Shown: positions 11,383 through 30,474, counted from the stretch's first letter. The stretch is DNA of 64,000 bases from an uncultured Candidatus Rokubacteria bacterium (GCA_963747235.1 CAVVEU010000020.1:64001-128000); one strand, 5' to 3'. A program made the numbers and translations. The notes: generated from the letters alone by a model not told the origin.

Positions 11383-12078
11383 TCAGCGGACACTGGTGCC
11401 GGCCCGGGGTCGCAGCACGAAGAGCAGCCCCATGCCGGCCAGGAAGCCTCCGATGTGGGCAAAGAAGGCCACCCCGCCGCTGGCCCCGAAGCTGCCGAGC
11501 CCGTTGAGCACCTGGACCACGATCCAGAAGCCCAGCACGATCACGGCGGGGATCTTCACCAGGCGGAAGAAGAAGCCCAGGATGATCAGCGTGGTGACGT
11601 GGGCGTGCGGGAAGAGCACCAGGTAGGCGCCCAGGACCCCGGAGACCGCGCCGCTCGCGCCCACCATGGGCACCGGGGAGCCGGGGCCGATGGCGGTCTG
11701 GGCCAGCGCGGCCGCCACGCCCGAGGCCAGGTAGAAGATCAGGTAGCGGCCGTGGCCCAGGACGTCCTCGACGTTGTTCCCGAAGATCCACAGGTAGAGC
11801 ATGTTGCCCGCGATGTGGAAGAGCCCGCCGTGCATGAACATCGAGCTGAAGATGGTCAGGATCGGCGCCGGCAGGTCCAGGGCCCCCCGGCAGGCGCCGG
11901 TGAGCCGGCAGGGCACCAGCCCGAACTCCTCGATGAAGGCCTGCCCGGCCCGCGCGCCCTGCCCGTCGCCCACCTCCAGCGAGAACTGGTAGAGGAAGAC
12001 CAGCGCGTTGGCCAGGATCAGGCCGATGGTGACGATCGGGGTGCTGTGGGCGGGGTTGTCGTCCTTGAGGGGGAACAC
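11383..12078 (-). CDS. Rhomboid family intramembrane serine protease
   Basis: SMFMHGGLFHIAGNMLYLWIFG, GASGAVSG (catalytic Ser), AHIGGF (catalytic His). Confidence 0.92.
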   Translation of the reverse strand: MFPLKDDNPAHSTPIVTIGLILANALVFLYQFSLEVGDGQGARAGQAFIEEFGLVPCRLTGACRGALDLPAPILTIFSSMFMHGGLFHIAGNMLYLWIFGNNVEDVLGHGRYLIFYLASGVAAALAQTAIGPGSPVPMVGASGAVSGVLGAYLVLFPHAHVTTLIILGFFFRLVKIPAVIVLGFWIVVQVLNGLGSFGASGGVAFFAHIGGFLAGMGLLFVLRPRAGTSVR

Positions 12079-12084: not shown

Positions 12085-13386
12085 CTATTGCGCCGCGGGA
12101 CCCAGCGTCACCACGGTGGGCGCGCTCAGATAGGCTCGCGCGACGCGCTGCACGTCCTCGGCCGTCACCACCTCCACCGCGCGCACGTACCGCTCGGCGA
12201 ACCCCGGCCCGACTCCGAGCGCTTCGAAGAAGGCGTCATACCAGGACAGCCGCGCGTTGGTGCGCCGATCCAGCGCGAACTGGCCGAGCAGGTAGCCCTT
12301 GGCGCGCGTGAGCTCGGCCGGGCTCAGGGGCTCGCGGCGGATGCGCTCGAGCTCCCCCAGCATCGCGGTCTCCGCCCGGGCCTGGTTGGCCGGCGCGGTG
12401 CCGAGCTGCGTGAAGAGCACGCCGGGCCCCTCGCGCGACGGATAGGCGCCGCCCGTCGAGTAGGCGAGGCCCTGCTTGTCGCGCACCTCGGTGAAGAGCC
12501 GTCCGGCCATGCCGCCGCCCAGCGCGGTGGCCAGCACCTTCACCGCCGCGTAGTCGGCGTGTGACGTCGGCGGGGCGAGGAAGCCGGCCAGGACCTGGGC
12601 TTGCGCAGACGCCCGCACGATCACGGTGCGGTCCGCGCGCGCGGCGGCCGCGGGCAGTGTGGGCTCGGTCTCCGCGGGGCCGGTGGGGGCGCCGGCGAAG
12701 AGGCGGCTCACCTCCGCCATCACGAGGCGCGTGTCCACGTCGCCGCTCACGGCCAGGATCATGCGCGGGGCCCGGTAGAAACGCTGGTGATGCGCGACCA
12801 GGCGGGCGCGATCGATGCGCTCCAGCGCGGCGGGCCGGCCCAGGATCGGGCGGCCGTACGGATGATCCCCGTACACGCGGCTCATCAGCGTATCCATGGC
12901 CAGCGAGAACGGCTGGTCCTGCCGGCTGCGGAGCGCGGTCAGGGTGGCGCGCCGCTCGCCGTCGATCTCGGCCACGGGCAGCGTGGGCCGCAGCGCGACG
13001 TCGGCGATCAGCTCGAGCATCGTTCGCCAGTTTCGCGCGAGCGCGGTGGCGCGGATCTCCGAGTAGTCCAGGTCGGCCGACGAGCCGATGCCCCCGCCCA
13101 GGTTCTCCGCGGTCTCGGCGACCTCGAGCGCCGAGCGCTTCTCGGTCCCCTTGAGCAGCACCTGCTGGAGCAGATGGCTGATGCCCGCGTCGTCCTCGGT
13201 CTCCCAGCGCGAGCCCATCCGCACGAAGAGCGAGGCCGCCGTCACCGCGGTCGCGGTGTTCTCCCGCACCAGCACGGTGAGGCCGCCGGGGAGCTGCTGG
13301 CGAACCGGCTGCGCCGTCGCCTGCCCCGCCGCGGCCCACCCGAGGGCCACGACCAGCGCGAGAGCCGCCGCGCGCCGCGGGCTCAC
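12085..13386 (-). CDS. M16B (pitrilysin-family) peptidase, non-catalytic subunit, with signal peptide
   Basis: GTG start overlaps the upstream stop. Signal peptide MSPRRAAALALVVALGWAAAGQATA. HXXEH is degenerate (HLLQQ). C-terminal RLFTEVRDKQGLAY R/Y motif is retained. Confidence 0.85.
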   Translation of the reverse strand: MSPRRAAALALVVALGWAAAGQATAQPVRQQLPGGLTVLVRENTATAVTAASLFVRMGSRWETEDDAGISHLLQQVLLKGTEKRSALEVAETAENLGGGIGSSADLDYSEIRATALARNWRTMLELIADVALRPTLPVAEIDGERRATLTALRSRQDQPFSLAMDTLMSRVYGDHPYGRPILGRPAALERIDRARLVAHHQRFYRAPRMILAVSGDVDTRLVMAEVSRLFAGAPTGPAETEPTLPAAAARADRTVIVRASAQAQVLAGFLAPPTSHADYAAVKVLATALGGGMAGRLFTEVRDKQGLAYSTGGAYPSREGPGVLFTQLGTAPANQARAETAMLGELERIRREPLSPAELTRAKGYLLGQFALDRRTNARLSWYDAFFEALGVGPGFAERYVRAVEVVTAEDVQRVARAYLSAPTVVTLGPAAQ

Positions 13387-14732
13387 TGCGCGCGACCCCG
13401 CGGGACGAAGGCCAGCCGCGCGTAGGCGTCGGTGAGGTAGCGGCGCGCCGCCTCCTGCACCTGCGCGCCCGTCACCGCGCGCACGCGGTCCAGGTAGGCG
13501 CGCTCGGCCTCCAGGCTCCAGGTGGTCTCGGCGCGGCCGTACGCCAGCGCCAGGCCTTCCACCGTCTCGCGCGAGAACTCGCGCTGGGCCTCGGAGGCGG
13601 TGATCGAGCGGGCCAGCTCCTCCGGCGTCACGCCGTCCGCCTGGATGCGGCGGATCTCGGCCAGGATGCCGCGCTCCACCGCCTCCTGGTCCGCGCTCTC
13701 GAGCTGCGCGGTCACGCCCACCGCGCCCGCGCCCTGGAGCGCGCCGTACCAGCCGCTGATCCCGGACACCAGCCGCGCCTTCTCGCGCAGGGCCTGGTTG
13801 AGCCGCGAGCTGCGCGAGCCGCCCAGGATGTGGCTCAGCACGTCCACCGCCGGCATGTCGGGATGACCGAGCGGCGGCGCCAGCCACGCGAGGCCGAGCT
13901 GCGTCTGGCGCTCCGGACGCTCCACCGATCGGGTGCGCACGCCGTCCAGCGGCGCCGGCGCGGGCACCGCCGGCCGGGTGTAGCCGGCCCGGGGAATCGC
14001 GCCGAACGCGGCGATCGCGGCGGCGCGGACCTCCGCCGGGTTGACGGGACCGACCACGACCAGGGCCATGTTCTCCGGGACGTAGTGGCGCTTGTAGTAC
14101 CCGCGCAGGGTCTCCTGGGTGGCGCCCCGCAGGTCTCCCGCGTCACCCAGCACGGAGCGCCCGTAGGGGTGGCCCTGGTAGAGCACGCTGTAGAGCTGGC
14201 GGCCCAGGGACGACCGCGGATTGTCCTCGTTCAGCCGCACTTCCTCGAAGACCACGTCGCGCTCGCGCGTGAGCTCGGTCGGATCGAACACGGAGTTGAG
14301 CACCATGTCCGCGATCAGGGAGATTCCGGGCACCGTGCGCGTCGCGGGCAGCAGCAGGTAGTAGAAGGTGTAGTCGTTCGATGTGCCCGCGTTGGTGCGC
14401 CCGCCCACCGCCTCGACGTCGCTCTCGACGAATCCGCGCGGCCGCGTCGCGGTTCCCTTGAAGAGCATGTGCTCCGCGAAGTGCGAGAAGCCGCGCTCGC
14501 CGATCGCCTCGTCGCGCCCGCCCACGCCGGTCCAGAGATGAATCGCGACCGTGGCCGCGGCGCGGTGCTCCTGGATGATGAGCCGCATGCCGTTGGGGAG
14601 CACCTCGCGGATGGGCGCGGGCAATCCACGCGCCCCCGGCGCGGGCGGTGCCGTCACGCATCCACCGAGCGTATATAGGAGGAAGGCGATCGCGCAGACG
14701 CGTACGGCGCATCTGCCGATGGAGGGGGTCAT
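13383..14732 (-). CDS. M16B peptidase, catalytic subunit, predicted lipoprotein
   Basis: Lipobox LGGC after a hydrophobic stretch, LPNGMRLI, intact HFAEH zinc motif, NAGTS, ERDVVFEE. Confidence 0.88.
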   Translation of the reverse strand: MTPSIGRCAVRVCAIAFLLYTLGGCVTAPPAPGARGLPAPIREVLPNGMRLIIQEHRAAATVAIHLWTGVGGRDEAIGERGFSHFAEHMLFKGTATRPRGFVESDVEAVGGRTNAGTSNDYTFYYLLLPATRTVPGISLIADMVLNSVFDPTELTRERDVVFEEVRLNEDNPRSSLGRQLYSVLYQGHPYGRSVLGDAGDLRGATQETLRGYYKRHYVPENMALVVVGPVNPAEVRAAAIAAFGAIPRAGYTRPAVPAPAPLDGVRTRSVERPERQTQLGLAWLAPPLGHPDMPAVDVLSHILGGSRSSRLNQALREKARLVSGISGWYGALQGAGAVGVTAQLESADQEAVERGILAEIRRIQADGVTPEELARSITASEAQREFSRETVEGLALAYGRAETTWSLEAERAYLDRVRAVTGAQVQEAARRYLTDAYARLAFVPRGRAQ

Positions 14733-14840
14733 TGCGGCTACACGGTACCAGAGCCCAAGACAGTTTGCCGGGTCATCTGTCGGGGCCATGCCGGGCAGAA
14801 CGCCCTCGTGGCCCCGGTGGCCGATCGGAGGCCGAAGCCT

Positions 14841-14853
14841 TAAGGTATTGAAA
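14841..14853. promoter_or_regulatory. Putative IHF-binding site
   Basis: Reverse strand TTTCAATACCTTA matches WATCAANNNNTTR with one mismatch. It lies in an AT-rich patch about 30-45 nt upstream of the -24 element. Confidence 0.45.
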
Positions 14854-14881
14854 CTATGGACTAGTTGGACTCTGAAACCCT

Positions 14882-14898
14882 CTGGCATTGCCGGTGCA
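14882..14898 (+). promoter_or_regulatory. Sigma-54 (-24/-12) promoter for the repeat-protein gene
   Basis: CTGGCA-TTGCCGG-TGCA has exact GG-N10-GC spacing, about 105 nt upstream of the ATG at 15005. Confidence 0.65.
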
Positions 14899-15004
14899 TC
14901 CTATGGCTGCGAGTTGGGGCCCCAGGGGGCCGGGAGAAGAAACCCAAGTGGGACGCGCAGTGAGCAAGAAGTCAGAAACGCAGTCAGAAAGGATGGAAAC
15001 GACG

Positions 15005-16188
15005 ATGAGAAAGTTCCTTGCAGCGACGATGAGTGTAGTGACGGTCTTCTCCCTCTCGGCCACGGTCGGGATGGCGCAGACCACGTCCTGCCCCGAGGTG
15101 GCGTCGGCGAAGGCGATGCTGACGCAGACCGCGAAGAGCCAGGACGTCCAGGCGCCCCGCTCGCTGGCGGGTGCCCGGTCGCAGGACGTGCAGGCCCCGC
15201 GTAGCCAGGACGTCCAGGCGCCCCGCTCGCTGGCGGGTGCCCGGTCGCAGGACGTGCAGGCGCCGCGTAGCCAGGACGTGCAGGCCCCGCGCGGTCAGGA
15301 TGTGCAGGCTCCTCGCGGTCAGAACATCCAGGCTCCTCGCGCCCAGGACGTGCAGGCGCCGCGTGGCCAGGATGTGCAGGCTCCTCGCGGTCAGGACATC
15401 CAGGCTCCGCGTAGCCAGGATGTGCAGGCTCCCCGCGTCAGGACTAGCGGGTGCCCGCGTCGCAGGACGTGCAGGCTCCTCGCGCCCAGGACGTGCAGGC
15501 GCCGCGTGGCGGTCGGCAGGACGTGCAGGCTCCTCGCGGCCAGGACATCCAGGCGCCGCGTGGTCAGGATGTGCAGGCTCCTCGTGGTCAGAACATCCAG
15601 GCTCCTCGCGCGCAGGACGTCCAGGCGCCGCGTGGCCAGGACATTCAGGCCCCGCGTGGTCAGGACGTGCAGGCTCCTCGTAGCCAGGACGTGCAGGCTC
15701 CTCGCGGTCAGAACATCCAGGCTCCTCGCGCCCAGGACGTGCAGGCGCCGCGTGGTCAGGATGTGCAGGCTCCTCGCGGTCAGGACATCCAGGCGCCGCG
15801 TGGCCAGGATGTGCAGGCTCCTCGCGGTCAGAACATCCAGGCTCCTCGCGCCCAGGACGTCCAGGCTCCTCGCGGCCAGGACGTGCAGGCGCCGCGTGGC
15901 CAGGACGTGCAGGCTCCTCGCGGTCAGAACATCCAGGCTCCTCGCGCCCAGGACGTGCAGGCGCCGCGTGGTCAGGATGTGCAGGCTCCTCGTGGTCAGA
16001 ACATCCAGGCTCCTCGCGGCCCAGGACGTGTCCAGGCCCCGCGTGCCCAGGATGTGCAGGCTCCCCGCTCTGCCGAGTTCAAGAAGGCTTCTGGTCTCGT
16101 GACCGAGGCCGAGGCGGCGTGCAAGGCCGGCAACTCGACGCTGGCGGCTGACAAGGCCAAGGCGGCGATGGAGATGCTGAAGAAGTAG
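15005..16188 (+). CDS. Secreted tandem-repeat protein, about 36 x Q(D/N)(V/I)QAPR(G/A/S), flanked by two single-Cys helical segments; one net frameshift near 15437-15460
   Basis: SD-like AAAGGA at 14988. Signal peptide MRKFLAATMSVVTVFSLSATVGMA, then QTTSCPEVASAKAML, repeats (11 in ORF 14888..16102, 25 in ORF 15451..16188), and C-terminus SAEFKKASGLVTEAEAACKAGNSTLAADKAKAAMEMLKK. Confidence 0.85.
15140..16068 (+). repeat. Coding tandem repeat, 24-nt unit (e.g. CAGGACGTGCAGGCTCCTCGCGGT), about 36 copies
   Basis: Directly visible. Variation is mostly synonymous (GCT/GCG/GCC, CCT/CCG/CCC, CGC/CGT). Confidence 0.95.
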
Positions 16189-16206
16189 CAGTTCGACGAC
16201 GCAACC

Positions 16207-16245
16207 AACGGCCCCGGGGCGAATCCCCCGGGGCCGTTTCTTTTT
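16207..16245 (+). terminator. Intrinsic terminator of the repeat-protein gene (possibly bidirectional with phnE)
   Basis: AACGGCCCCGGGG-cgaatc-CCCCGGGGCCGTT followed by TCTTTTT. Confidence 0.85.
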
Positions 16246-16258
16246 GTGGCGATCGCGG

Positions 16259-17007
16259 TCAGACGAGGCGGGCCCGGAGCCGGGACGACGCGAAGTCCAC
16301 GATCATCACCAGCCCGATCAGCACGAGCAGCACGGTGGCCGCCGCGGGATAGTTCAGGAGCCGCAGGTAGGTCTGGATGTAGAAGCCGATGCCCCCTGCC
16401 CCCACGAAGCCCAGGACCGCCGCCGCCCGGATGTTCGTCTCGAAGCGATACAGCGTGAAGGACAGGAACTGCGGCACGAGCTGCGGGAGCACGCCCCAGC
16501 GCAGCACCTGCAGCGTCGTGGCGCCCGTCGCCCGCACCGCCTCCACCGGCCCCGGCTCGATGGCCTCGATGGCCTCGGAGTACAGCTTGGCCAGCACGGT
16601 CGCCGTGTAGACCAGGACCGCCAGCACGCCCGGGAACGGGCCGAGCCCGACCGCGGCCACGAAGAAGAGCGCGTAGACCAGCGTGTCCACCGCGCGGAAC
16701 GCATTGAGCAGGCTGCGCGCCCAGTAGAAGAGCCAGGGCGGCGCCGCGTTGCGCGCGGCCGCGAAGCCCAGCGGCAGCGCGAGCACCGCCGCCACCGCGG
16801 TGCCCACCACCGCGATCTGGATGGTCTCCACGGCCCCGCGCAGCGCGTTGCCCAGCACCGAGAGATCGGGCGGGACCATGCGACGCAGGAAGTCCCACAT
16901 GAAGGGAAGGCCCTCGATCAGGCGGCCCAGCGAGACTTCGGTCTCCACCGCCGACCAGGCGATGGCCCCCAGGATGACCACCCACGCCGCCCATCGGCTC
17001 CCGCGGC

Positions 17008-17011
<4 letters not shown>
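16259..17011 (-). CDS. phnE: Phosphonate/phosphite-type ABC transporter permease
   Basis: ETIQIAVVGT, AAVGLGPFPGVLA, AKLYSEAIEAI, LYRFETNIRAAAVLGFVGAGGIG. Confidence 0.9.
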
Positions 17012-17750
<739 letters not shown>

Positions 17751-17754
<4 letters not shown>

Positions 17755-18080
17755 CGGCGGCCGGCGGTGAAGTGGAAGTGGACGTGGTAGACCACCTGCC
17801 CGCCCTCGGGCCCCGTGTTGCAGGACACGCGATAGCCGCGCTCGGCGTAGCCGGTGCGCTCGCCCAGCAGTCGCGCCACCTGCATGCACCGGCCGATCAC
17901 CTCGGTGTCACCGGGCTCGAGCCGCGCGAGGGACTCGATGTGGCGCTTCGGGACGATCAGCAGGTGGATCGGCGCCTTCGGGTACAGATCCCGGAACGCC
18001 AGGACCTGATCGTCCTCGTACTCGATCTCGGCGGGACTCTCCTTCGCGGCGATGCGGCAGAAGACGCAGGTCTGGGTCAC
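17751..18080 (-). CDS. Histidine triad (HIT/Hint) nucleotide-binding protein
   Basis: CVFCRI, PKAPIHLLIVPKRH, GGQVVYHVHFH. GGAGG SD before the GTG. Confidence 0.92.
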
Positions 18081-18152
18081 GGGGCCTCCCGGCTCGTGTA
18101 TAATCCTTGACGCCACGCCATCCTGTCAGCGAATCCGTTGGAGGACAACGAC

Positions 18153-18274
18153 ATGGGTACCTGTCCCAAGTGCAAGCTGCGCATCCGAAAGAACGGCAAC
18201 CACATCAAGCTGGGCTCGGTCTGGCGCCACAAGATGTGCCCGCCAAGCCCGGCCGCGCCGCCAAGAGCGCCTAG
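18153..18274 (+). CDS. Small basic zinc-finger protein (about 40 aa, CxxC-x18-HxxC); probable 1-nt indel near 18242
   Basis: GGAGG SD then ATG gives MGTCPKCKLRIRKNGNHIKLGSVWRHKMCP. After a frameshift it continues KPGRAAKSA to TAG at 18272-18274. Confidence 0.55.
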
Positions 18275-18392
18275 CTTCCCTCCCCGCTCCATCAGCACAG
18301 TCTCACCGCCGCTGGTCAGGGTAGCCGAAACCGGGCGAGGGTGGGAAGAGCCGTCCAGCGCATCGCGACACGTCCCGACGAGGAGGCCCGGC

Positions 18393-19411
18393 ATGACGGT
18401 CCGGCTCATCGCGCTTCTCCTGCTCGCCACCCTCGTCTCGGTCGGGCTGCCGGCGCCCGCCGGGGCCCAGGCGGTGGGCGACGTCTTCCGGAAGGTGAGC
18501 CCTTCCGTCGTCGTGATCCGATCCAGGGGGCGGGACGTCTCCGCGTCCGGCCAGGTCCGCTTCGGAGAGATCGGCTCCGGCGTGCTGATCTCGGCGGACG
18601 GCAAGGTGATGACGGCGGCCCACGTCGTCCACGCGATGGACGAGATCAACGTGGAGTTCATCGGAGGCGAGACGGTGCCGGCGCGGGTCGTCGCCTCCGA
18701 GCCCGCCGCCGACCTCTCGCTGCTCCAGCTCGATCGCGTGCCCGCCGACGTCCGCGTCTCTCGCCTCGCCGATTCGCGCACCGTCCGCGTGGGCGACCAG
18801 GTGCTGGTCGTGGGCGCGCCGTACGGGCTCGCCTACTCGCTGAGCGTCGGCTACGTCAGCGCCCGCTGGCCGCCGAACAGCGTGTACCCGGCCTTCCCGC
18901 TGGCCGAGTTCTTCCAGACCGACGCCACGATCAACACCGGCAACTCCGGCGGCCCTCTGTTCAACCTGGCGGGTGACGTCATCGGGATCGTGAGCCACAA
19001 CATCTCGAAGGGCGGCGGCAGCGAGGGGCTCGGCTTCGTGGTGACGATCAACACCGCCAAGGATCTCCTGCTCGCCCGGCGCTCCATCTGGAGCGGACTC
19101 GAGGGCCACACCCTGTCGGGGGACCTGGCCGCGATCTTCAACCTGCCCCAGCCCGAGGGCTTCCTGGTCAAGACGGTGGCCAAGGGCTCGCCCGCCGCGG
19201 AGGCGGGGATTCGCGGCGGCAACCGGACCGCGGTCATCGACGGCCAGACGCTGGTGGTCGGCGGCGACGTCCTGCTCGCGGTGGAGGGCATCCCGGCCGG
19301 AAACCTCGCCGACTACAACCGGATGCGCGAGCACTGCAGACGCTGCCGGGGCGCCTCAGTGACGGTGCTGCGGGCCGGCGCGTGCTGAACCTGGTCGGCA
19401 AGGCGCCCTGA
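18393..19411 (+). CDS. HtrA/DegP-like trypsin serine protease with PDZ domain (C-terminus probably frameshifted)
   Basis: AGGAGG SD, signal peptide, GSGVLI, TAAHVV, DLSLL, QTDATINTGNSGGPL, PDZ VAKGSPAAEAGI. Confidence 0.88.
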
Positions 19412-19870: not shown

Positions 19871-20680
19871 TCAGCTCTTGGGTGGCTGCGGATCGGCGCC
19901 GAACGCCCGCAGCAGCGGGGTGAAGAGGTCCAGCGGCAGCGGGAAGAAGGTCGTGGTGTTCCGCTCGGAGGCCACCTCCCGCATCGTCTGGAGATAGCGG
20001 AGCTGCACCGCGATCGGGAAGCGCATCAGCACCTCGGCGGCCTCGCCCAGCTTGGCGGCGGCCTGGAACTCGCCCTCCGCGTTGATCACCTTGGCGCGCC
20101 GCTCGCGCTCGGCCTCGGCCTGCTTGGACATGGCGCGCTGCATGTCCTGCGGCAGGTCCACGTTCTTCACCTCGACGGCGGCCACCTTCACGCCCCACGG
20201 GCTCGTGTGCTGGTCGATGATCCGGGTCAGCTCCTCGTTGATCTTCTCCCGGCGCGCCAGGAGATCGTCCATCTGCTGCTGGCCCAGCACGCTCCGCAGC
20301 GTGGTCTGCGCCATCTGGGAGGTCGCGTAGAGATAGTCCTCCACGCTGATGACCGCCTTGGCCGCGTCGAGCACGCGGAAGAAGATCACCGCGTTCACCT
20401 TCATCGACACGTTGTCGCGCGTGATCACGTCCTGGGGCGGCACGTCCATGGTGATCGTGCGGAGGCTCACCTTGACCATCTTGTCGATGAACGGGATCAG
20501 GAGCACGAGGCCCGGGCCGGTGCCGTCGCCCCCGGGGTTGAAGATCGCGTTGGTCCGCCGGCCGAAGCGGAAGATGACGCCCCGCTCGTACTCCCGCAGG
20601 ATGCGGAACGAGGAGAAGAAGATGTAGAGCAGGATGATCGCGACCGGGATGATGCCGAAGAGGAGCTGGATGCCTTCCAT
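19871..20680 (-). CDS. SPFH/stomatin-like (slipin) protein
   Basis: [63 protein letters not shown]. Confidence 0.93.
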
Positions 20681-20699
20681 GTGCGGCCTCCTGAGAGTG

Positions 20700-22022
20700 C
20701 TAGGGGCGCTGCGCCGACCTGGTGACCTTGAGCGTGAGGCCATCGATGGCCGCGACCTTGACGGACTCGCCCGCCGCCACGGTGCCGTCCTGGCTCAGCG
20801 CCCGCCACAGCTCGCCGTCGATCATCACCTGCCCCTCGGGCGCCAGCGCCGACCGCGCCACCCCGAGCCGCCCCACCATGGCGGATTCGCCGGTCACCGA
20901 GGGCCGGTAGAGCGCGCGGATGCCCATGGACACCGCGAAGAAGACCAGCGCCGCGGTCGTGCCCACCGTGGGAATCACCACGTACCAGGACAGCCGGATC
21001 CCGGTCGTCTCGGGCGAGTCGTAGAGCATGAGGGAGCCGAGCAGCATGGCGACCACGCCGCCGATCGCGAGGACGCCGTGGCTCACCACCTTGACCTCGG
21101 CGATGAGCAGCACCACGCCGAAGAGAAGCAGCAGGAGGCCGGCCCAGTTCACCGGCAGGCTCTGGAAGGCGTAGAAGGCCAGGATCAGGCAGATGCCGCC
21201 GATGACGCCGGGCAGGATCGCGCCCGGGTTGGACAGCTCGAAGAAGATGCCCGAGCATGCCCGCCATCATCAGCAGGTAGGCGATGTTGGGGTCCGAGAT
21301 CAGGGCGAGGAACCGGTCGCGGAAGCGCACCTCGATGACCTTGACCGGCGCGTCCTTGGTGGCGAGCGTGACCTGGCCGCGCGTGGTCTTGACGGCGCGG
21401 CCGTCGATCTGGGTCAGGAGATCCGGCACGCTCTCGGCCACCAGGTCCACGATCTTGAGCTTGACCGCCTCGCGCTCGGTGGCCGAGACCGACGAGCGCA
21501 CCGCCTTCTCGGCCCACTCCGCGTTGCGCCCCCGCTCGGTGGCGATGGTGCGCGCGAAGGCGGCCGCGTCGTTCTCGACCTTCTTGATCATCTCCTTGTC
21601 CCCGCCCCCGCCCACCGCCACCGGGTGCGCGGCCCCGATGTTCGTGGCGGGCGCCATCACGGCCACGTGCGCGGCCATCGTGATGAAGACTCCGGCGGAG
21701 GCGGCGCGCGCGCCACCCGGCGCGACGTAGACGATGACCGGGATCGGCGAGCCCAGGATGCTCTGCACCATCGAGCGCATGGAGCGCTCGAGCCCGCCCG
21801 GCGTGTTGAGCTGCACGATCGAGGGCCTGGGAGCCTTCGGCCTGCGCCCGGTCGATCGCGCTCGCCGAGCAGGCGGACCGTGACCGGGGTGATCGCGGAA
21901 TCCAGCTCGATCAGCGACACGGATTGAGCCGCGGAGGCCGGGCCGGCGAGGGAGAGCAGCGCGGCGGAGGCCAGCAGGATGGCGACGGCGACGAGGAGAG
22001 GCCGGTTGATGGCCGATCTCAC
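20700..22022 (-). CDS. nfeD: NfeD-family membrane protease (ClpP-like domain, TM domain, OB fold); frameshifted
   Basis: [27 protein letters not shown]-terminal [16 protein letters not shown], spread over three frames. Lies upstream of slipin. Confidence 0.85.
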
Positions 22023-22053: not shown

Positions 22054-23007
22054 CTAGCGGGCGAGGGCGACCACCGAGAGCAGCTCGAAGAGCAGGTTGG
22101 CGGCCAGCACGCCGGTGATGGCGCCGGGCCCGTCGTAGGGCGGCGAGACCTCGACGATGTCGCCCCCGGCCAGCTCGATCCCGCGCAGCCCGCGCACGAG
22201 CCCGAGCGCCTCGTAGGAGGTGAGCCCGCCCGCCTCCGGCGTCCCCGTCCCCGGGGCGTAGGCCGGATCGCACGCGTCCACGTCGAAGGAGACGTAGACG
22301 GGCCCGCCGCTCTCGAGGCGCCGCAGCCGCTCGACCGCGGCGGCGACGCCGCGCTCCTTGATCTCCTCGATGCGGATGACCTCGAAGGCGTGCTCGCGGT
22401 GGAAGTCGAAGTCCTCCGGGCCGTAGAGGGGCCCGCGGATGCCCACCTGGATGGAGCGCGCGCCGTCGATCAGCCCCTCCTCGATCGCCCGGCGGAAGGT
22501 GCTGCCGTGGTAGTAGGGCAGGCCGAAGTAGCGGTCCCAGGTGTCCGGGTGCGCGTCGAAGTGCACGAGCCCCAGGCGCCCGTGGCGCTTCGCGAGCGCG
22601 CGCAGCACCGCCAGGGTCACGGTGTGATCGCCGCCCACGCAGAGCGGGACCGCGCGGGCCTCCACCACCGGCGCCAGGGTCTGCTCGATGGCCGCGAAGG
22701 TCGCCTCGATCGACACCGGCACCGCGTCCACGTCGCCGCAGTCGGCGACCCGCAGCCGCTCGAAGGGGTGCACGCGCAGGGCCGAGTTCCACGGCCGGAT
22801 CAGCGAGGACTGCTCGCGCACGTGACGCGGGCCCATGCGCGCGCCCGAGCGGTAGGAGCAGCCGCCGTCGAAGGGAATGCCGCAGAGGGCCACGTCGAGC
22901 CCCGCGGGCGACTCCACGTGCGGCAGCCGCATGAACGTGGCCGGCTGCGCGAAGCGAGGCGACGCGAAGCCGTCGCGCTGCTTCGGATGCTCGCGGGACG
23001 GGTCCAT
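22054..23007 (-). CDS. speB: Agmatinase/guanidino-acid ureohydrolase
   Basis: GIPFDGG..R.GARMGP, GGDHT, HFDAHPD, HGSTF, SFDVDACDPAYAPGTGTP metal-binding motifs. Exact substrate uncertain. Confidence 0.8.
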   Translation of the reverse strand: MDPSREHPKQRDGFASPRFAQPATFMRLPHVESPAGLDVALCGIPFDGGCSYRSGARMGPRHVREQSSLIRPWNSALRVHPFERLRVADCGDVDAVPVSIEATFAAIEQTLAPVVEARAVPLCVGGDHTVTLAVLRALAKRHGRLGLVHFDAHPDTWDRYFGLPYYHGSTFRRAIEEGLIDGARSIQVGIRGPLYGPEDFDFHREHAFEVIRIEEIKERGVAAAVERLRRLESGGPVYVSFDVDACDPAYAPGTGTPEAGGLTSYEALGLVRGLRGIELAGGDIVEVSPPYDGPGAITGVLAANLLFELLSVVALAR

Positions 23008-23028
23008 GGCAGCGGCGGTGCCGGCCGG

Positions 23029-24246
23029 CTAGAGCGTGCCGCGCAGGGTTGCCACCGCCGCGGCCAGGCGCTCGACCTCGCCCGCCGTGGAGTGCACCGA
23101 GAAGCTCGCGCGCAGCGTGCCCGCGATGCCGAGGCGGCGCATCAGCGGCTGGGCGCAGTGAAAGCCCGCGCGCACCGCGATCCCCTGCTGGTCGAGCAGC
23201 GCGGCGCCGTCGTGGGGGTGCAGCCCCTCCACGTTGAAGGCCACCACCGCGCCCTTCATCTCGGGATTGCGCGGGCCGTAGAGGGTGACGCCCTCGATGC
23301 GCCCCAGCGCGTCCAGGCACTGCGCGACGAGCGCCTGCTCGTGGGCCAGCACCTCGCTCATGCCGAGCTTGCCGAGGTATTCGCACGCCGCGTGCAGCCC
23401 CACCGCCTCCGCGATCGGGGGCGTGCCCGGCTCGAAGCGCCACGGCAGGTCGTTCCACTGCGCGCGGTCGATCCAGACCTCCTTGATCATCTCGCCGCCG
23501 CCCCAGGCGGGCTCGAGCTTGTCCAGCACCTCGCGGCGCCCGTAGAGCACGCCGATGCCGGTGGGCCCGAGCATCTTGTGGCCGGAGAAGGCGTAGAAGT
23601 CGGCGCCGATCGCGTTCAGGTCGAGCGGGAGATGCGGCACCGCCTGGGCCCCGTCGAGCAGCACGAGCGCGCCGGCCCGGTGCGCGCGCTCCACGATCTG
23701 GGCCACCGGGTTGATCGTCCCGAGCACGTTGGAGACGTGGGCGACCGCCACCACGCGTGTGCGCGGGGAGAGCAGGCGGTCGAAGGCCTCGAGGTCGAGA
23801 TACCCCTCCCCGACCACCGGGATCGCGCGCAGCACCGCGCCGCGGTCGCGACAGGCCATCTGCCACGGGATCAGGTTCGAGTGGTGCTCGAGCTCGCTGA
23901 CGATGATCTCGTCGCCCGCCTTGAGCGTCCGTCCCACCGCCTGCGCCACCAGGTTGATCCCCTCGGTGGTGCCGCGCGTGAAGATGATCTCCTCGCGGCT
24001 GCGGGCGCCCACGAAGGCGCGCACCGCGTCCCGGGCCGCCTCGTACCGCTCGGTGGCTTCCTCGCCCAGGGTGTGGATGGAGCGGTGCACGTTGGCGTGG
24101 CTCGTCTGGTAGTAGTTCGAGATGGCCTCGATCACCGCGAGCGGCTTCTGGCTGGAGGCGGCCGAGTCGAGATAGACGAGCGGATGCCCGTTCACGATGC
24201 GGGAGAGGATCGGAAAGTCGCGGCGGGTCTTCTCGCCCAGGTTCAT
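23029..24246 (-). CDS. sufS: SufS-type (group II) cysteine desulfurase
   Basis: YLDSAASSQKP, ANVHRSIH, EHHSNLIPWQ, FSGHKMLGPTGIG (PLP Lys), RAGFHCAQP. Confidence 0.92.
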   Translation of the reverse strand: MNLGEKTRRDFPILSRIVNGHPLVYLDSAASSQKPLAVIEAISNYYQTSHANVHRSIHTLGEEATERYEAARDAVRAFVGARSREEIIFTRGTTEGINLVAQAVGRTLKAGDEIIVSELEHHSNLIPWQMACRDRGAVLRAIPVVGEGYLDLEAFDRLLSPRTRVVAVAHVSNVLGTINPVAQIVERAHRAGALVLLDGAQAVPHLPLDLNAIGADFYAFSGHKMLGPTGIGVLYGRREVLDKLEPAWGGGEMIKEVWIDRAQWNDLPWRFEPGTPPIAEAVGLHAACEYLGKLGMSEVLAHEQALVAQCLDALGRIEGVTLYGPRNPEMKGAVVAFNVEGLHPHDGAALLDQQGIAVRAGFHCAQPLMRRLGIAGTLRASFSVHSTAGEVERLAAAVATLRGTL

Positions 24247-24617
24247 CGCGTCACCTCCTGACCGCTGAGGGCCTCCTGCAGGACGCTCAGCGGGAGCGTC
24301 ACGCACTTCATCCGTGACGGCCGGATATCGGAATCGAGCCGCTCCAGCAGGCTCGACGGGGTCTGGGTCTGCGCGAAGCCCACCGGCTGGCCGAGCGCGG
24401 CCTCGAGCAGCAGGTCGGCGGAGGCCGCGCAGATCGCGCAGCAGTCGCCGGTCCAGCGGGCCTCGGCCAGGCGCCCGTCGGCGAGCCGGCCCTGGATGCG
24501 CACGCGGTCGCCGCAGAGCGGGTTCACGTCCTCGTGGGCCACGTCCGGGCGCTCGATCGCGCCGCGGAAGAGCGGCCGGCGGAAGCGCTCCCGGATCACG
24601 TCGCTGTAGAGCGCCAT
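24243..24617 (-). CDS. sufU: SufU/IscU-like sulfur-transfer or scaffold protein
   Basis: MALYSDVIRERFRRP, NPLCGD, GDCCAICAASA, RMKCVTLP (tail of ORF 24243..25601). Confidence 0.8.
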   Translation of the reverse strand: MALYSDVIRERFRRPLFRGAIERPDVAHEDVNPLCGDRVRIQGRLADGRLAEARWTGDCCAICAASADLLLEAALGQPVGFAQTQTPSSLLERLDSDIRPSRMKCVTLPLSVLQEALSGQEVTR

Positions 24618-24619
24618 GG

Positions 24620-25666
24620 TTACTCGGCCAGCTCGCCGCGGGCGCCGGTCTTGCGGTACGGCGGGAAGCGGTACGCGCTGTCGCGCGAGAGCAGGCCGCC
24701 GTGGCCGAGGGCGGCGATCTCGGCCGCGCCGGTCGGGAGCCCGGCCAGGATGCGCGGCAGCACCAGGTCGAACGTGGTCGCCTGCGAGAACATGCCGCAG
24801 GCGGGCATGCCGAGCACCGGGTGCCCGCGCACCTCCGCGATCCACAGCAGGCTGCCCGGATGGGCCGGCGCGCCGTGCCGGATCATGCGGCCGCCCAGGC
24901 GCTCGAGCCCCGCGAAGACCGGATCGAGCGGATCGAGCGAGCCCGCGCCGGCCGCGATCAGGATGTCGGCGCCGGCGGCCAGCAGGGCCTCCATCTCGCC
25001 CGCGACCGCGGCGGCGTCCCCGGCCGCGTAGCGCACCGGCAGCAGCCGCGAGCCGAACCAGTCCACCTTCTCGGTCAGGGAAGACTCGAAGCGCTGGCGC
25101 TGGGGCGGAGCCAGGGTCTCGCGGCTCAGCGCGGCCAGCACGTGAGGCTGGAAGGGCTTCACCGAGACGAGCCCGCCCGCGCTCGCCGCGCGGCTCTCCG
25201 CGTCCTTCACCAGCCGCTCCGGGATGGCCAGCGGGGTGATCTTGGCCCGGGCCACCGGCTCGCCCGACTCCACCGGCTGCAGATCGTAGAGCGTGAAGAC
25301 CGACATGCCCTCGAGCCCGTTGACCGCCGCGACCGCGGGCGCGTTGACGCCGACGAGGCCGCGCCGCTGCGCCGCGAGCGTCCACTGCCCGCCGGTATAG
25401 CCCTTGACCTCCACGTTGGCGCCGCAGGCCGCGGCGGCCAGGCGCGAGCCGGCCGGCTCCTCGTGCACGTCGCCCGGTTCCAGCTCGAGCAGGTGCACCT
25501 CCTGCCAGGGCAGCGCGAGCAGGCGCGCCGCCGCGGCCGCGTCGAGCGTCTGGCCCTTCGAGATGGCCACCTTCCCGGCCTGGTCGCGCACGTCGTGGCA
25601 CGCGATGCGCCCCTCGAGCGCGTCGGGGGTGACGTCGCTATTCCGGTTTACGGCAACGGCCTTCAA
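24620..25666 (-). CDS. Molybdopterin-binding (MoeA/MoCF_biosynth-like) protein
   Basis: C-terminal part of ORF 24620..26854 from TTG: CHDVRDQAGKVAISKG, LEPGDVHEE, SLDPLDP, HGAPAHPGSLLW, GMPACG, FDLVLPR. Confidence 0.7.
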   Translation of the reverse strand: MKAVAVNRNSDVTPDALEGRIACHDVRDQAGKVAISKGQTLDAAAAARLLALPWQEVHLLELEPGDVHEEPAGSRLAAAACGANVEVKGYTGGQWTLAAQRRGLVGVNAPAVAAVNGLEGMSVFTLYDLQPVESGEPVARAKITPLAIPERLVKDAESRAASAGGLVSVKPFQPHVLAALSRETLAPPQRQRFESSLTEKVDWFGSRLLPVRYAAGDAAAVAGEMEALLAAGADILIAAGAGSLDPLDPVFAGLERLGGRMIRHGAPAHPGSLLWIAEVRGHPVLGMPACGMFSQATTFDLVLPRILAGLPTGAAEIAALGHGGLLSRDSAYRFPPYRKTGARGELAE

Positions 25667-25678
25667 GGCTTGTTCTGA

Positions 25679-25709
25679 TTGGGGGGGAGCGGCGCCGCTC
25701 CTCCCCCAA
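25679..25709. repeat. Intergenic palindrome / REP-like element
   Basis: TTGGGGG-GGAGCGGCGCCGCTCC-T-CCCCCAA: perfect 16-bp core palindrome with extended arms. Confidence 0.6.
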
Positions 25710-25764
25710 GCCCCCCCACCACACTCATCATTCGTCTGTCCTCGGGCTCCATGCTCGGCCGCGC

Positions 25765-26854
25765 CTACTTGAGGCCGCGGCGTACTTTCTCGGAGATGGG
25801 CATGCCGGTGGCGTTGCGATGGGTGGCCAGGGCCTCGGCCAGGATGCTCAGCGCGATCTCGGGCGCGGACTGGGCGCCCAGGTCGAGCCCGATCGGCACG
25901 CGCACGCGCAGCAGCGCGTCCTCGGCCACGCCGTCCTCGCGCAGCAGGTTCAGGATCGCCGCGCCCACGCCGGCTGCTGCCGAGGAGCCCGATGTAGCCC
26001 GCCGGCGTGCTCAGGGCGTGCTTGAGCACCGGGAGGTCGTACTTGTAGTCGTGGGCGACCAGCACCAGCGCGGTGGTCGGGATCAGCGGGACCTGCTGCA
26101 CCAGCTCCGACGGCACGCCGATCCGGAGATCGTCCACGTCCGGGAAGCGCTCCTTGGTGGCGAAGCGCGGCCGGCCGTCGATCACGATCGTGCGGAAGCC
26201 GAGCGTTCTGGCCAGCGTGACGAGCGGCATCGCCACGTGGCTGGCGCCGACCACGATCAGCGTGGAGGGCGGCGCGAAGACTTCCGCGAAGGCGCGCACG
26301 TTCTCGAGGAACAGCGTCCGCGACTTCCCCGCGGCCATGGCCTCGCGGGCCTCCGCGGCGAAGCGCTGGTCGAGGAAGGTATCGCCGAGCGTGCCCTCCT
26401 GCTTGCCGTCGTCGAGCAGCAGGAGCTTGGCGCCGTTGTGGGGCGCATCGAGGCGGGTCACGATCACCGCCCGCCCGCCCTGCTCGGCGTGGACGCGCGC
26501 CCGCTCGTAGTAGACGAGCGTCGTGTCGTCCTTGTCGCCGAGCGTCACCGGCTCCAGGAAGACCTCGATGGTGCCGCCGCAGGTGAGCCCGATCTCCCAC
26601 GCTTCCTCGTCGCCCAGGTTCAGCTCGAGGAGCCGCGGGGCGTTCTTGCCGAGCACGTCGGCCGATTCCTCGATGACCTGCGCGTCCACGCAGCCGCCGA
26701 TGGTGACCGAGCCGAGCACGCGCCCGCCCTCGCCCACCAGCATCTTCGCCCCTTCCTTCCGGGGCGTGGTGCCGCGCGTGTTGACGAGGGTGGCCACCGT
26801 CACCTTGGACTCGTTCTGCTTGAGCTGGTTCAGCTGCTCGGAGAGCTCGGTCAT
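25765..26854 (-). CDS. xdhC: XdhC/CoxI family Moco maturation chaperone (frameshift near 25965)
   Basis: GTTPRKEGAKM, GSVTIGGCVD, IGLTCGGTIEVFLE, YIGLLGS, PIGLDLGAQSAPEIALSILAE. Confidence 0.88.
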
Positions 26855-26859
26855 GTCGA

Positions 26860-28014
26860 CTACCTCAGGTTGAGATGGCTGGCCAGGTCGCGCAGGCTCG
26901 CCAGGTTATGCGCCGCCGCGAAGTGGTCCACGAGCGGCAGCGCCGCGGCCATCCCTCGCGTGAGGGGCTCGTAGGACGGATTGCCCAGCAGCGGGTTGAG
27001 CCAGATGAGCCGGCCCGCCTTGCGCTTGATCGCCAGCATCTCGTTGGCCAGGATCTCGGGCTCGCCGGTATCCCAGCCGTCCGACAGCACGAGGACGATG
27101 GTGTGCCGATCCACCAGGTTCCCCCACCGCGCATTGAACTCCTGCAAGGATTCCCCGATCCGGGTCCCACCGGAGAAGTCCCGCACCTCGGTCAGCTTCG
27201 CCAGGGCCTGGCGGTAGGACGCACCCTTGAGATGCTCGGTCACCCGCGTCAGTCGCGTCGAGAAGGTGAAGGTCTCGACCCGGCCGAAGACGTTCTGGAG
27301 CGCGTAGAGGAACTGGAGCAGGAAGCGGCTGTAGAGGTCCATCGAGCCCGAGACGTCGCAGAGCAGGACGAGCCGGACCTTGCGCCTCCGGCGCTCTCGC
27401 CTCCGGAGCTCGATGATCTCGCCCTTCATGAGGTTGGCCCGCATGCTGCGCCGCATGTCGATGACCCCGCCCCGTCGGGTCGGCCGCTTGCGCCGGCTGA
27501 TGCGCCGGGCCAGCCGCTTGGCGATCAGGATCGTGAGCCGGGCCACCTCGTCGAGATCCTCAACCGGAAAGGCCGAAAAGTCCTGATCCATGAGGATTTC
27601 TCGGTCACTGACCCCGGGGACCTCGAGCGGCTCTCCGTCGTCGTCGCCCTCTTCCTCCCAGCCTTCGAGCGCCACCGAGACCTTCTTCTGCGCCGCCTCC
27701 GCCCCGGTATTGCCGGCGTGCTCCTCCGGGATGGCCGCCTCGGTCGGGCTCATGAGGCCGTCGAGCCCCTGCCCCTCGTCGGCCTGGAAGCGCCAGAAGA
27801 CGTCGAAGCAGCGGTCGAAGGCGGGGAACTCCTCCCGCCGGGCGACCAGGGTCGTGCGCAGCGCCAGGTAGACGTCCTGGCGGTCCATCAGGTCCACGAC
27901 CTCGAGCGCCCGCACCCCGTCCATCAGCTCGCCGACGGTGAGCGGCAGCCCCGCCGCCCGCAGCATCTGGCCGAAGCGGAGGACGGCGGTGGTGAGGTCG
28001 CGGGGTCCCGCCAT
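26860..28014 (-). CDS. coxE: CoxE-like VWA-domain protein
   Basis: LCDVSGSM MIDAS motif, FSTRLT, SGGTRIG, LSDGWD, WLNPLLG. Confidence 0.88.
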   Translation of the reverse strand: MAGPRDLTTAVLRFGQMLRAAGLPLTVGELMDGVRALEVVDLMDRQDVYLALRTTLVARREEFPAFDRCFDVFWRFQADEGQGLDGLMSPTEAAIPEEHAGNTGAEAAQKKVSVALEGWEEEGDDDGEPLEVPGVSDREILMDQDFSAFPVEDLDEVARLTILIAKRLARRISRRKRPTRRGGVIDMRRSMRANLMKGEIIELRRRERRRRKVRLVLLCDVSGSMDLYSRFLLQFLYALQNVFGRVETFTFSTRLTRVTEHLKGASYRQALAKLTEVRDFSGGTRIGESLQEFNARWGNLVDRHTIVLVLSDGWDTGEPEILANEMLAIKRKAGRLIWLNPLLGNPSYEPLTRGMAAALPLVDHFAAAHNLASLRDLASHLNLR

Positions 28015-28015
28015 G

Positions 28016-28907
28016 CTAGCCCTCGGCGGCCACGAAGCGCTTGAGGCCGCTCGACGTCAGCTCCCGCTTGAAGCGCTTGATGTCGTCGGCGTCCTTGAGC
28101 ACGCAGCCGAGCGTCTCCAGCACCAGGTCCTCGTCGAGATGATTGGCGTGCAGCGAGGCCAGGGCCTGCGCCCAGTCGAGGCTCTCGGCCACCCCCGGCA
28201 CCTTGGAGAGGCGCATGGTGCGGAGGCCTTCCATGAAGCGCGAGATCTCGCGGGCGAGCGCCTCGTTCACCCCGGGGACCTTGCGGGTGACGATGCGCAC
28301 TTCCTTCTCGAACCCCGGGAAGTCGATCCAGAGATAGAGACAGCGCCGGCGCAGCGCATCGGAGAGCTCGCGCACCCGGTTCGACGTGAGGATGACGTAC
28401 GGCGGGATGCTTGGCCTTGATCGTGCCGAGCTCGGGGATCGTCACCTGGAACTCGGAGAGCACCTCGAGGAGGAACGCCTCGAATTCCTCATCCGCGCGG
28501 TCGACCTCGTCCACCAGCAGCACCGGCGGCCTGCCGTCCTGGCTGATCGCCTGGAGCAGCGGGCGGCGGATCAGGAAGGGCTCGGAGAAGATCGTCGCTT
28601 CCTTCTCGCCGAGGCTGTGGGTGGTCGCCTCCTCGAGCTTGATGTGCAGGAGCTGCTTGGGGTAGTTCCACTCGTAGAGCGCCTGCGCGGCGTCGAGCCC
28701 CTCGTAGCACTGCAGGCGAATGAGGTTGGTGTCGAGCATCCGCGCCATCACCTTGGCGACCTCGGTCTTGCCCACACCCGCGTGTCCCTCGATGAGGAGC
28801 GGCTTCTTGAGCGTCATGGCCAGGTGCACGGACGTCGCGATGGCCGGATCCGTGACGTAGTCGGCCTTCTCCATCATCTGCTGGATCTTCTCGATTTCGG
28901 CTCTCAT
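28016..28907 (-). CDS. coxD: CoxD-like MoxR AAA+ ATPase (frameshift near 28405)
   Basis: EGHAGVGKTE, RLQCYEGLD, LYEWNY, DEVDRADEEFEAFLLE, RELSDALRRRCLY. Confidence 0.88.
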
Positions 28908-28919
28908 GGCCCTCTCAGT

Positions 28920-29522: not shown

Positions 29523-29532
29523 CCCGCGCTCC

Positions 29533-29573
29533 AAAAACGACGCCCCGCGGAGGCCATCCCGCGGGGCTCGTCG
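29533..29573 (-). terminator. Intrinsic terminator or attenuator between coxM and mocA
   Basis: Minus strand GACGAGCCCCGCGG-gatggcct-CCGCGGGGCGTCG followed by TTTTT. Confidence 0.65.
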
Positions 29574-29596
29574 ACCGGACGTCTCACCCGAGCGGC

Positions 29597-30460: not shown

Positions 30461-30474
30461 GTCGGCGTCTCCCC

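Follow-up and report, generated by a model that had tools for sequence, protein, structure and literature searches.

Results and Discussion

Layout of the Locus

The window analyzed here is a 64,000-nt stretch of DNA from an uncultured Candidatus Rokubacteria bacterium (GCA_963747235.1, CAVVEU010000020.1:64001-128000). It contains a gene for an exported protein made of tandem octapeptide repeats, and this gene faces two divergently transcribed genes for a pair of M16B peptidases (Table 1). The host genome (G000) measures 5.57 Mb and is 88% complete. An earlier sequence-only reading of the window had proposed that the repeat protein is a secreted precursor from which the peptidase pair releases dozens of octapeptides. 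We could confirm this observation in part, and our analysis lends partial support to the interpretation.

Most structural elements are as first described. The number of units had been put at about 36, and a six-frame count finds 35 exact matches to Q[DN][VI]QAPR; the shared divergent spacer, previously given as 270 nt, spans 272 nt (14733-15004). The two M16B genes are translationally coupled, with the GTG start of the second overlapping the TGA stop of the first as GTGA. One of them encodes a catalytic lipoprotein (HFAEH, lipobox Cys) and the other a noncatalytic subunit (HLLQQ, hydrophobic N-terminus), and the rhomboid gene said to follow them (11383-12078) begins 6 nt past the stop codon of the inactive M16 gene. 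The description of 15005-16188 as one repeat gene stands with regard to the units and the signal peptide, which we recognize by eye, but this interval of 1184 nt is not a multiple of three and does not form a single open reading frame (ORF).

Table 1. Features of the repeat gene and the divergent M16B row (positions counted from the first letter of the window)
Feature	Position	Strand	Evidence
Rhomboid intramembrane serine protease, last gene of the M16 operon-like row	11383..12078	-	Pfam Rhomboid PF01694, E 1.8e-32
M16B noncatalytic subunit, HLLQQ replacing HxxEH, signal-peptide-like N-terminus	12085..13386	-	Pfam Peptidase_M16 + M16_C; 46-row alignment A4
M16B catalytic subunit, predicted lipoprotein (LGGC lipobox, HFAEH, distal Glu)	13383..14732	-	Pfam; 48-row alignment
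Divergent intergenic region, 272 nt	14733..15004	.	Coordinates; alignment of 12 same-genus loci
Conserved noncoding block, ~80-125 nt 5' of the promoter; candidate activator site	14757..14805	+	Conserved columns, 12-row alignment
Sigma-54-type promoter TGGCAT-N6-TGCA (GG-N10-GC)	14883..14898	+	Invariant elements, 12 same-genus rows
Repeat gene, 5' part: signal peptide, Cys-bearing N-terminal helix CPEVASAKAMLTQTAKS, 11 octads, SLAGAR spacers	15005..15436	+	Translation
Frame break (+2) within a garbled SLAGAR spacer; probably assembly indels	15437..15459	+	ORF list, DNA, contig comparison, orthologs
Repeat gene, 3' part: 24 octads, irregular unit, Cys-bearing two-helix C-terminal segment (SAEFKK...AACKAGN...MEMLKK), stop	15460..16188	+	Translation
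Intrinsic terminator: 13-pair stem, 11 G-C pairs, T run	16207..16248	+	Hairpin in the sequence

The Repeat Unit Is Selected as a Peptide

Tandem Repeats Finder (TRF) describes the array as 33.9 copies of a 24-nt period at 15248-16068, with higher-order periods of 48 nt (score 845), 66 nt, and 72 nt. Of the 35 units, 11 share their reading frame with position 15005 and 24 with position 15460; the rest of the genome adds just two further matches to the six-frame count, both on contig C39. The array has a second irregularity at about 16017-16040, the unit GPGRVQAPR. The consensus of the octad is [S/G/A]-Q-D/N-V/I-Q-A-P-R, and the window protein carries an array of 35-36 octads. Pfam matches of the array to Peptidase_M23, Gp5_trimer_C, and Cornifin were discarded as low-complexity artefacts, given that no stretch passes alone.

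Across the 35 units the residues Q, Q, A, P, and R are constant while their codons vary. Alanine is encoded by GCG in 11 units, by GCC in 3, and by GCT in 21; proline by CCC in 4, CCG in 13, and CCT in 18; and arginine by CGC in 20 and CGT in 15. Comparison of unit pairs gives 1345 synonymous versus 799 nonsynonymous codon differences, the latter at three positions only. A set of 1305 PR-anchored units from 120 database proteins follows the same pattern (Q 0.91, D/E 0.87, V/I/L 0.85, Q 0.96, A/S 0.98, and G/S/A 0.89 for the residue after PR). Since these residues stay constant despite codon variation, the unit is selected as a peptide, which argues for a function of the unit itself. This selection fits a cleaved peptide and a binding motif alike and does not discriminate between the two. 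A role of the repeat loop as a ruler or spacer is unlikely because its length differs about 10-fold among close species.

The Frame Break Is Most Likely an Assembly Error

Both the ORF list and the DNA place the loss of frame at 15437-15459, within a garbled SLAGAR spacer. Because relatives have intact ORFs, we read this break as an assembly error, most likely a set of small indels. We compared the region with Logan contigs of other public runs, which cover it with shares of ≤0.54 and without a single piece that spans the array. A contig of run X3 across 15437-15458 omits 1+1+2+1 = 5 nt and thereby restores the frame. The irregular unit is shorter by 3 nt (16017-16031) in contigs of each of the runs X2, X3, and X15. 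Outside the array, the single bases 16224, 16254, and 16256 are omitted in contigs of one to three runs.

The alternative is that the gene is a pseudogene in this genome. Both of its family genes are frame-broken in the assembly, the second one (C39:48891-49400) at a single point that corresponds to ...AQASLKKAP... in an intact relative, and under this explanation both breaks would be real. We consider this very unlikely. Past the break, the array keeps perfect unit register for 24 units with synonymous-only variation at the invariant positions, and the X3 contig that restores the frame is near-identical to the window. The contigs that lack single bases of the window outside the array also speak against a pseudogene, as do comparable breaks in housekeeping genes of relatives (nadK in L015, recN in L042).

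Several other ORFs of the window match Pfam profiles in part, for example PfkB at profile positions 221-300 and adh_short at positions 134-179. These ORFs lie at 36171-36713, 48043-48999, 53550-54020, 57786-58283, and 60328-61533, and the profiles concerned are those of PfkB, aminotransferase, adh_short, Trypsin_2, and family-B DNA polymerase. The partial matches suggest many small frame breaks in the assembly.

Architecture and Range of the Repeat Family

The product of the repeat gene begins with MRKFLAATMSVVTVFSLSATVGMA, followed across the presumed signal peptidase site by QTTSCPE. By eye, a Sec signal with a basic n-region, a hydrophobic core, and an A-x-A-like site is recognizable in the window protein and in all intact orthologs. 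Each of the latter is encoded by one uninterrupted ORF (169-435 aa); counts by regular expression give 7-41 units, and the ends are those of the window gene. The architecture is constant throughout the family: a signal peptide, a helix starting with C-P-x-E, a first unit followed by SLAGAR, 4-41 octads, and a C-terminal segment of the pattern ...L-V-x-E-A-E-A-A-C-K-x-G...K-A...L-L-K.

Two cysteines, C28 and C153, are invariant across 105 aligned sequences. For a family member, AlphaFold2 predicts from this alignment helices at residues 30-49, 133-154, and 158-173 with block pLDDT values of 77-87; the repeats remain below 50 and the mean pLDDT is 55.7. As modeled, one N-terminal and two C-terminal helices would form a three-helix cap with a cysteine on each side, and a disulfide between them could close the protein into a ring. 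At one locus (L020, G023:C33), a DUF6788 gene sits in the ~2.3-kb interval that separates two members of the repeat family. A VKOR (disulfide-bond) gene adjoins them and may bear on the conserved cysteine pair.

When an intact ortholog was searched against 5.8 billion proteins, 1356 of them matched at E ≤ 0.001. Among the 120 matches listed, all source names read "hypothetical protein", and the organism, where stated, is Candidatus Rokuibacteriota or Methylomirabilota. With a 14-sequence profile we found matches in 144 of 251 genomes of the phylum. The GTDB family of the window (f1) accounts for 143 positives among 158 genomes (140 of 155 without the unpublished genomes G116, G232, and G233, which are all positive), compared to 0 of 92 in the other families. 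Most genomes contain several copies.

Neither the two ORF parts of the window nor three intact relatives gave a real Pfam or NCBIfam match. The ESM Atlas returned Methylomirabilota/Rokuibacteriota "hypothetical" clusters only and no lead outside these groups; the clusters that bear the names Peptidase_M23, Gp5_trimer_C, or Cornifin are the repeat family's own. Strings of the repeat unit are absent from the literature searched, and a search on Rokubacteria repeat proteins, judged by title and the start of the abstract, gave nothing relevant. The repeat family is undescribed, and its range is limited to a single family-level lineage of Methylomirabilota ("Rokubacteria").

The Repeat Gene Forms Its Own Transcription Unit

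The intergenic region contains the sequence TGGCATTGCCGGTGCA at 14883-14898, 106 nt before the ATG. It fits GG-N10-GC, the sigma-54 promoter consensus, and none of the 12 same-genus intergenic regions departs from its elements TGGCA and TGCAT. The same 12 rows conserve the block at 14757-14805, the leader element GGGGCCCC, and the ribosome site AAAGGA, and the indels near the block are not multiples of three. We place the start codon at 15005 because the AAAGGA site is conserved and because there are orthologs without the upstream ATG.

A strict version of the promoter pattern (TGG[CT]A[CT]-N5-[CT]TGC[AT], within 450 nt upstream) occurs 5' of 26 of 58 family genes, and these sites make up 26 of all 42 matches on both strands of the 2.13 Mb of fetched loci. 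With a relaxed pattern, the host genome (11.1 Mb for both strands) yields 68 matches. No enhancer-binding activator was found among the 43 window ORFs scanned. The conserved block has no convincing second copy genome-wide, and hence no regulon was drawn. In another ortholog (L057), a hairpin like that at 16207-16248 follows the gene, ahead of the downstream protease gene. With a sigma-54-type promoter and a terminator of its own, the repeat gene is therefore a unit separate from the divergent M16 row.

The paralog on contig C39 has the same type of promoter 58 nt before its start and adjoins archease-RtcB and CBS genes. One strand of this contig carries nine matches to a sigma-54-type promoter within ~55 kb (C39:4700-58900; L090, L091, L039, and L092). 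The genes behind them encode S30AE/HPF-like, BON, CBS, and Hsp20 proteins, a HAD hydrolase, an efflux adaptor, the repeat paralog, and USP. By its predicted gene content, this stretch looks like a sigma-54-controlled dormancy or stress island. We infer a link of the repeat family to stress because of the promoter type and the neighbors of the C39 paralog.

The M16B Pair and the Rhomboid

Both M16B subunits match Peptidase_M16 and M16_C in Pfam (catalytic subunit: E = 2.4e-27 and 1.8e-35; second subunit: 2.2e-22 and 5.9e-33). The residues H84, E87, H88, and E157/E163/E164 are invariant in 48 rows, with the acidic residues ~70-77 positions past HxxEH; the 46-row alignment of the inactive subunit holds no invariant His-x-x-Glu-His. 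Every catalytic-subunit ortholog row that reaches the N-terminus contains the lipobox Cys. The inactive-subunit rows begin with a hydrophobic stretch ending in A-x-A-like sites, as judged by eye. Searched against the PDB, the catalytic profile finds its best matches in 3hdi (E = 1.7e-79), the active subunit of 3amj/3ami (3amj: 6.8e-77), and the beta subunit of mitochondrial processing peptidase (MPP); the inactive subunit of 3amj is also matched by this profile. From the gene overlap and the likeness to chains C and B of 3amj, we infer that the two subunits would form a clam-shell dimer.

The complex predicted from the M16 subunits (alignments A3 and A4) and a 40-residue piece of the array received a score of 0.00 and a mark of 0.32, with the repeat chain scored only, and gives no verdict on binding. 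The rhomboid scores far below the cut-offs of the NCBIfam GlpG models and is not a GlpG equivalog. Judged by sequence, the two peptidases are ordinary M16B enzymes, and what sets them apart are the export signals on both subunits and the rhomboid that follows. Two ~430-450-aa genes with Peptidase_M16 and M16_C domains, and HxxEH plus a distal Glu in one subunit only, are likewise found in Sphingomonas SPH2681/SPH2682 (3amj), Bacillus halodurans BH2405 (3hdi), and MPP alpha/beta. Unlike those pairs, the window pair carries export signals on both subunits, a lipobox on the catalytic one, and a rhomboid after them.

According to a 2025 review (PMC12731061), most prokaryotic M16B enzymes have been studied with nonphysiological test substrates only and the physiological ones are mostly unknown; one bacterial M16B enzyme, RPP, is described there as favoring positively charged peptides.

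Synteny with the M16B Pair and Other Proteases

Our synteny set comprised 62 loci from 54 genomes of 21 genera with 65 family genes, of which 60 were assessable after exclusion of five with <200 nt of upstream sequence; one locus (L030) was scored by hand. The M16 catalytic gene is the divergent upstream neighbor of 40 of these 60 genes in 18 genera. Eleven of the linked cases belong to the genus of the window and 29 to 17 other genera, with M16 identities of 47-63%. The remaining 20 genes consist of 17 paralogs at other loci (next to amidase/cupin, Sel1/hemerythrin, acyl-CoA dehydrogenase, or RtcB/CBS genes) and three genes that occupy the main locus but have no M16 pair beside them. In one such genus (g25) the rhomboid gene abuts the repeat gene, and another (g23) keeps a fragment of the inactive subunit only. 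Both g25 and g23 have an M16 pair elsewhere without a repeat gene, and so does the host genome with its own second M16 pair. In g4 and g5, an M16 pair lies elsewhere, next to a short-chain dehydrogenase gene.

The whole neighborhood is collinear across the family. It runs recN-nadK-tlyA-rhomboid-M16-M16, then the divergent repeat gene, in some cases a protease gene, in some cases PhnE/PhnC-like ABC genes, and finally HIT and HtrA genes. This row of about 10 genes has suffered insertions or losses at several junctions, the one between M16 and repeat gene included. Since the whole row is collinear, this junction is old, yet it is not visibly better kept than its neighbors. The expectation that the M16B pair stays syntenic with repeat homologs was thus not refuted and holds for the 40 linked genes, but the block-wide synteny, the unlinked paralogs, and the separations in g25 and g23 count against it. 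Together with the relocated M16 pairs, the separate transcription unit, and the two-Cys cap, they make the linkage a weaker support for the precursor hypothesis. The protease linkage can be dated to the base of the family; a mechanism is not derivable from it.

A second protease gene adds to this picture. In 22 cases from 15 genera, a gene for a Trypsin_2 protease of ~460 aa lies downstream on the same strand as the repeat gene (most of the loci L040-L079, for example L051:9877-11280). Its closest solved relatives are HTRA1/2 and DegS (E about 1e-11), with which it shares the catalytic core only, and it has no PDZ match. The genus of the window has no such gene at this site; a 57%-identical copy lies at C15:46877-48238, where there is no repeat gene.

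The M16 clade (E ≤ 1e-95) is present in 146 of 158 genomes of f1, in 5 of 21 of family f4, in 1 of 1 of family f3, and in 0 of 70 of the other families. Within f1, 138 genomes contain both the M16 clade and the repeat family, 5 the repeat family only, 8 the M16 clade only, and 7 neither; kin genomes in these counts are not independent. The matching narrow ranges may reflect shared ancestry alone. Phyletic co-absence is uninformative as evidence: we inspected four of the seven genomes that lack both, and in each of them the contig carrying nadK-tlyA(-rhomboid) breaks off at the M16 site or just ahead of it. One repeat paralog (G156, L085:2325-6018) lies 179 nt upstream of a gene for a 936-aa single-chain M16 protein on the same strand. 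We rejected this association as independent support because it recurs at only 2 of 29 assessable orthologous loci, namely in G156 and in the 93%-identical G153 (L094). It represents one recent event and is weak evidence.

These data bear on the possibility that the repeat gene encodes an exported disordered or structural protein without any tie to the peptidases, and that the adjacency persists through slow rearrangement of a housekeeping block (recN-nadK-tlyA and so on). The collinearity of ~10 genes across genera with events at several junctions, this one included, would be expected in this case, and the unlinked cases in g25, g23, g4, and g5, the paralogs in unrelated contexts, and the separate transcription units agree with it. 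On the other hand, preservation of the divergent pair in 17 further genera at 47-60% protein identity exceeds typical gene-order decay, and in 15 genera two different protease genes flank the repeat gene. Moreover, the ranges of the two families are nearly equal in f1 and similar elsewhere in the phylum (6 of 92 genomes for the M16 clade and 0 of 92 for the repeat family). We regard mere coincidence of neighborhood as unlikely, although it deserves serious consideration.

Beyond the repeat gene, the window continues with genes for a PhnE-/PhnC-like ABC permease and ATPase (16259-17889, minus strand). Both exceed the equivalog cut-offs of NCBIfam, and we saw no gene for a binding protein next to them. 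This pair occurs at this site in some genera only (g1, g56, g31, g32, and g5). A gene for a DegP/HtrA-type protease follows at 18138-19388, then an SPFH/Band-7 gene with an NfeD gene at 19871-21152 (minus strand). By their predicted functions, the DegP/HtrA, SPFH/NfeD, rhomboid, and M16 genes are a run of envelope or membrane proteostasis genes. Further on, at 22054-34581, the window encodes an arginase, a class-V aminotransferase, XdhC/CoxI, CoxE-VWA, and MobA-like proteins, a molybdopterin-binding subunit, and a Ni-insertion (LarC-like) protein, which are unrelated to the present subject.

Comparison with Known Precursors and Stress Proteins

Yeast alpha-factor, KEX2-cut fungal ribosomal peptides (ustiloxin, phomopsin), and neuropeptide polyproteins all combine a signal peptide with many near-identical short units that end in a basic residue and vary in copy number. 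These eukaryotic precursors are cut in the secretory pathway by subtilisin-like convertases, usually at dibasic sites. The window protein differs from them in that it is bacterial, has a single Arg after Pro in each unit, and carries a conserved helical cap at its ends.

The closest bacterial parallel is VarA, the thiovarsolin precursor, which like the window protein contains tandem repeats with a conserved Ala-Pro-Arg end. VarA is not known to have a signal peptide. It contains at most 5 repeats and needs YcaO/TfuA, compared to an array of 35 units in the window. One product is made per VarA repeat (PMC6511847). The corresponding NCBIfam model, NF033878, yielded scores of 20.9 and 21.3 bits where 35 bits are required, with 0 stretches passing, and left a third family member unmatched. 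YcaO (PF02624) had no match in the host genome, which is 88% complete, whereas the controls matched in 5 of 14 genomes. The likeness to VarA is one of composition, not of membership.

We also considered small exported helical or disordered proteins that are induced by stress, such as Spy/CpxP/ZraP, Asr, and hydrophilin or LEA-type proteins. Expression of zraP depends on sigma-54, and CpxP is both a substrate and an adaptor of DegP. Similar to this group, the repeat gene has a sigma-54-type promoter and HtrA-type neighbors. The Spy/CpxP/ZraP profiles of Pfam and NCBIfam matched neither of the two ORF parts nor any of the three intact relatives, and none of the Spy, CpxP, ZraP, Asr, and hydrophilin or LEA-type proteins is known to have a long conserved-octad array closed by a two-Cys cap. 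On this comparison, the repeat protein may at most be called "like" secretory multicopy precursors or periplasmic stress proteins.

Intact Protein or Peptide Precursor?

Our best explanation, which we hold tentatively and judge slightly likelier to be wrong than right, is that the repeat protein is a stress-induced disordered protein of the periplasm that acts mainly in intact form and is maybe turned over by the neighboring proteases. The gene, which stands alone between its sigma-54 promoter and its terminator, would give rise to a Sec-exported protein whose helical cap holds a long disordered loop of octads. The divergent operon-like row would provide an exported M16B heterodimer, consisting of the lipoprotein catalytic subunit and its inactive partner, as well as the rhomboid. 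The intact repeat protein could then serve as a multivalent binder, shield, or buffer with a capacity that scales with the number of units. The exported proteases, namely the M16B pair and, in most other genera, the HtrA-like S1C protease, would belong to the same envelope-maintenance neighborhood, and those linked to the repeat gene may turn over or trim its product. The constant architecture, the selection on the unit, the separate transcription unit, the stress-type surroundings of the C39 paralog, the narrow range of the family, and the protease-rich neighborhood speak for this view.

Several observations weigh against this explanation. Seven of the eight unit positions are near-invariant and the unit ends in Pro-Arg, which exceeds the need of a generic disordered spacer and fits a recognition or cleavage site. 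The copy number varies from 4 to 41 among close species, as it does in multicopy precursors, and the three kinds of exported or membrane protease adjoining the gene could mean processing instead of housekeeping. The word "stress" reflects the promoter type and the neighbors of one paralog, and no known periplasmic stress family was matched in Pfam or NCBIfam. Contigs from the RNA run X15 that match the array are 90-95% alike and come from relatives, so that they do not report expression of this gene, and contigs cannot rank expression.

The same observations lead back to the precursor hypothesis, according to which the M16B pair, the HtrA-like S1C protease, or both cut the protein once per unit and release dozens of octapeptides that act as a signal, nutrient, or binder, with the helical cap as a recognition or handling module. 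Conservation of the unit's amino-acid sequence, including its invariant Pro-Arg end, is in line with such processing, and so are the variable copy number, the long-standing linkage to M16B genes in 18 genera, and the downstream protease in 15 genera. The scarcity of known bacterial M16B substrates and the preference of RPP for positively charged peptides (PMC12731061) leave room for a substrate of this kind, and repeated cores ending in APR do give products in thiovarsolin biosynthesis (PMC6511847).

Nevertheless, we consider this hypothesis quite unlikely. The cleavage itself is purely predicted. The 17 paralogs at other loci, the three main-locus genes without an M16 pair, and the relocated M16 pairs without a repeat gene do not fit an obligate partnership, and the junction is kept no better than the rest of the syntenic block. 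The repeat gene has its own sigma-54-type promoter and its own terminator even where a protease gene follows, and its paralog keeps stress-type company. Furthermore, the hypothesis leaves the two-Cys cap and the SLAGAR spacers unexplained, as a mere precursor would need no cap. Among the ORFs scanned we saw neither a receptor nor an exporter or modifying enzyme, the genome has no YcaO match, and a search for glutaminyl cyclase (PF05096) gave one match of 20.5 bits (31.2 with its neighbors), too weak for use. In its most specific form, a bacterial, Sec-exported, and sigma-54-induced polyprotein that linked periplasmic proteases cut into up to ~40 copies of one octapeptide, the hypothesis seems to us decidedly improbable.

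Significance

The repeat family described here is near-universal in one abundant, uncultured soil lineage. Its design is unusual: the conserved octads form a loop that a two-Cys helical cap closes, and the gene has a sigma-54-type promoter. If the M16B pair or the S1C protease processes the repeat protein, it would be the first bacterial secreted multicopy peptide precursor of this size and, as a polyprotein, a prokaryotic counterpart of neuropeptide or alpha-factor precursors. Processing by the M16B pair in particular would also provide the first assigned physiological substrate of an exported bacterial M16B pair. If, as we tentatively favor, the repeat protein acts intact, it would represent a new kind of periplasmic disordered stress protein.

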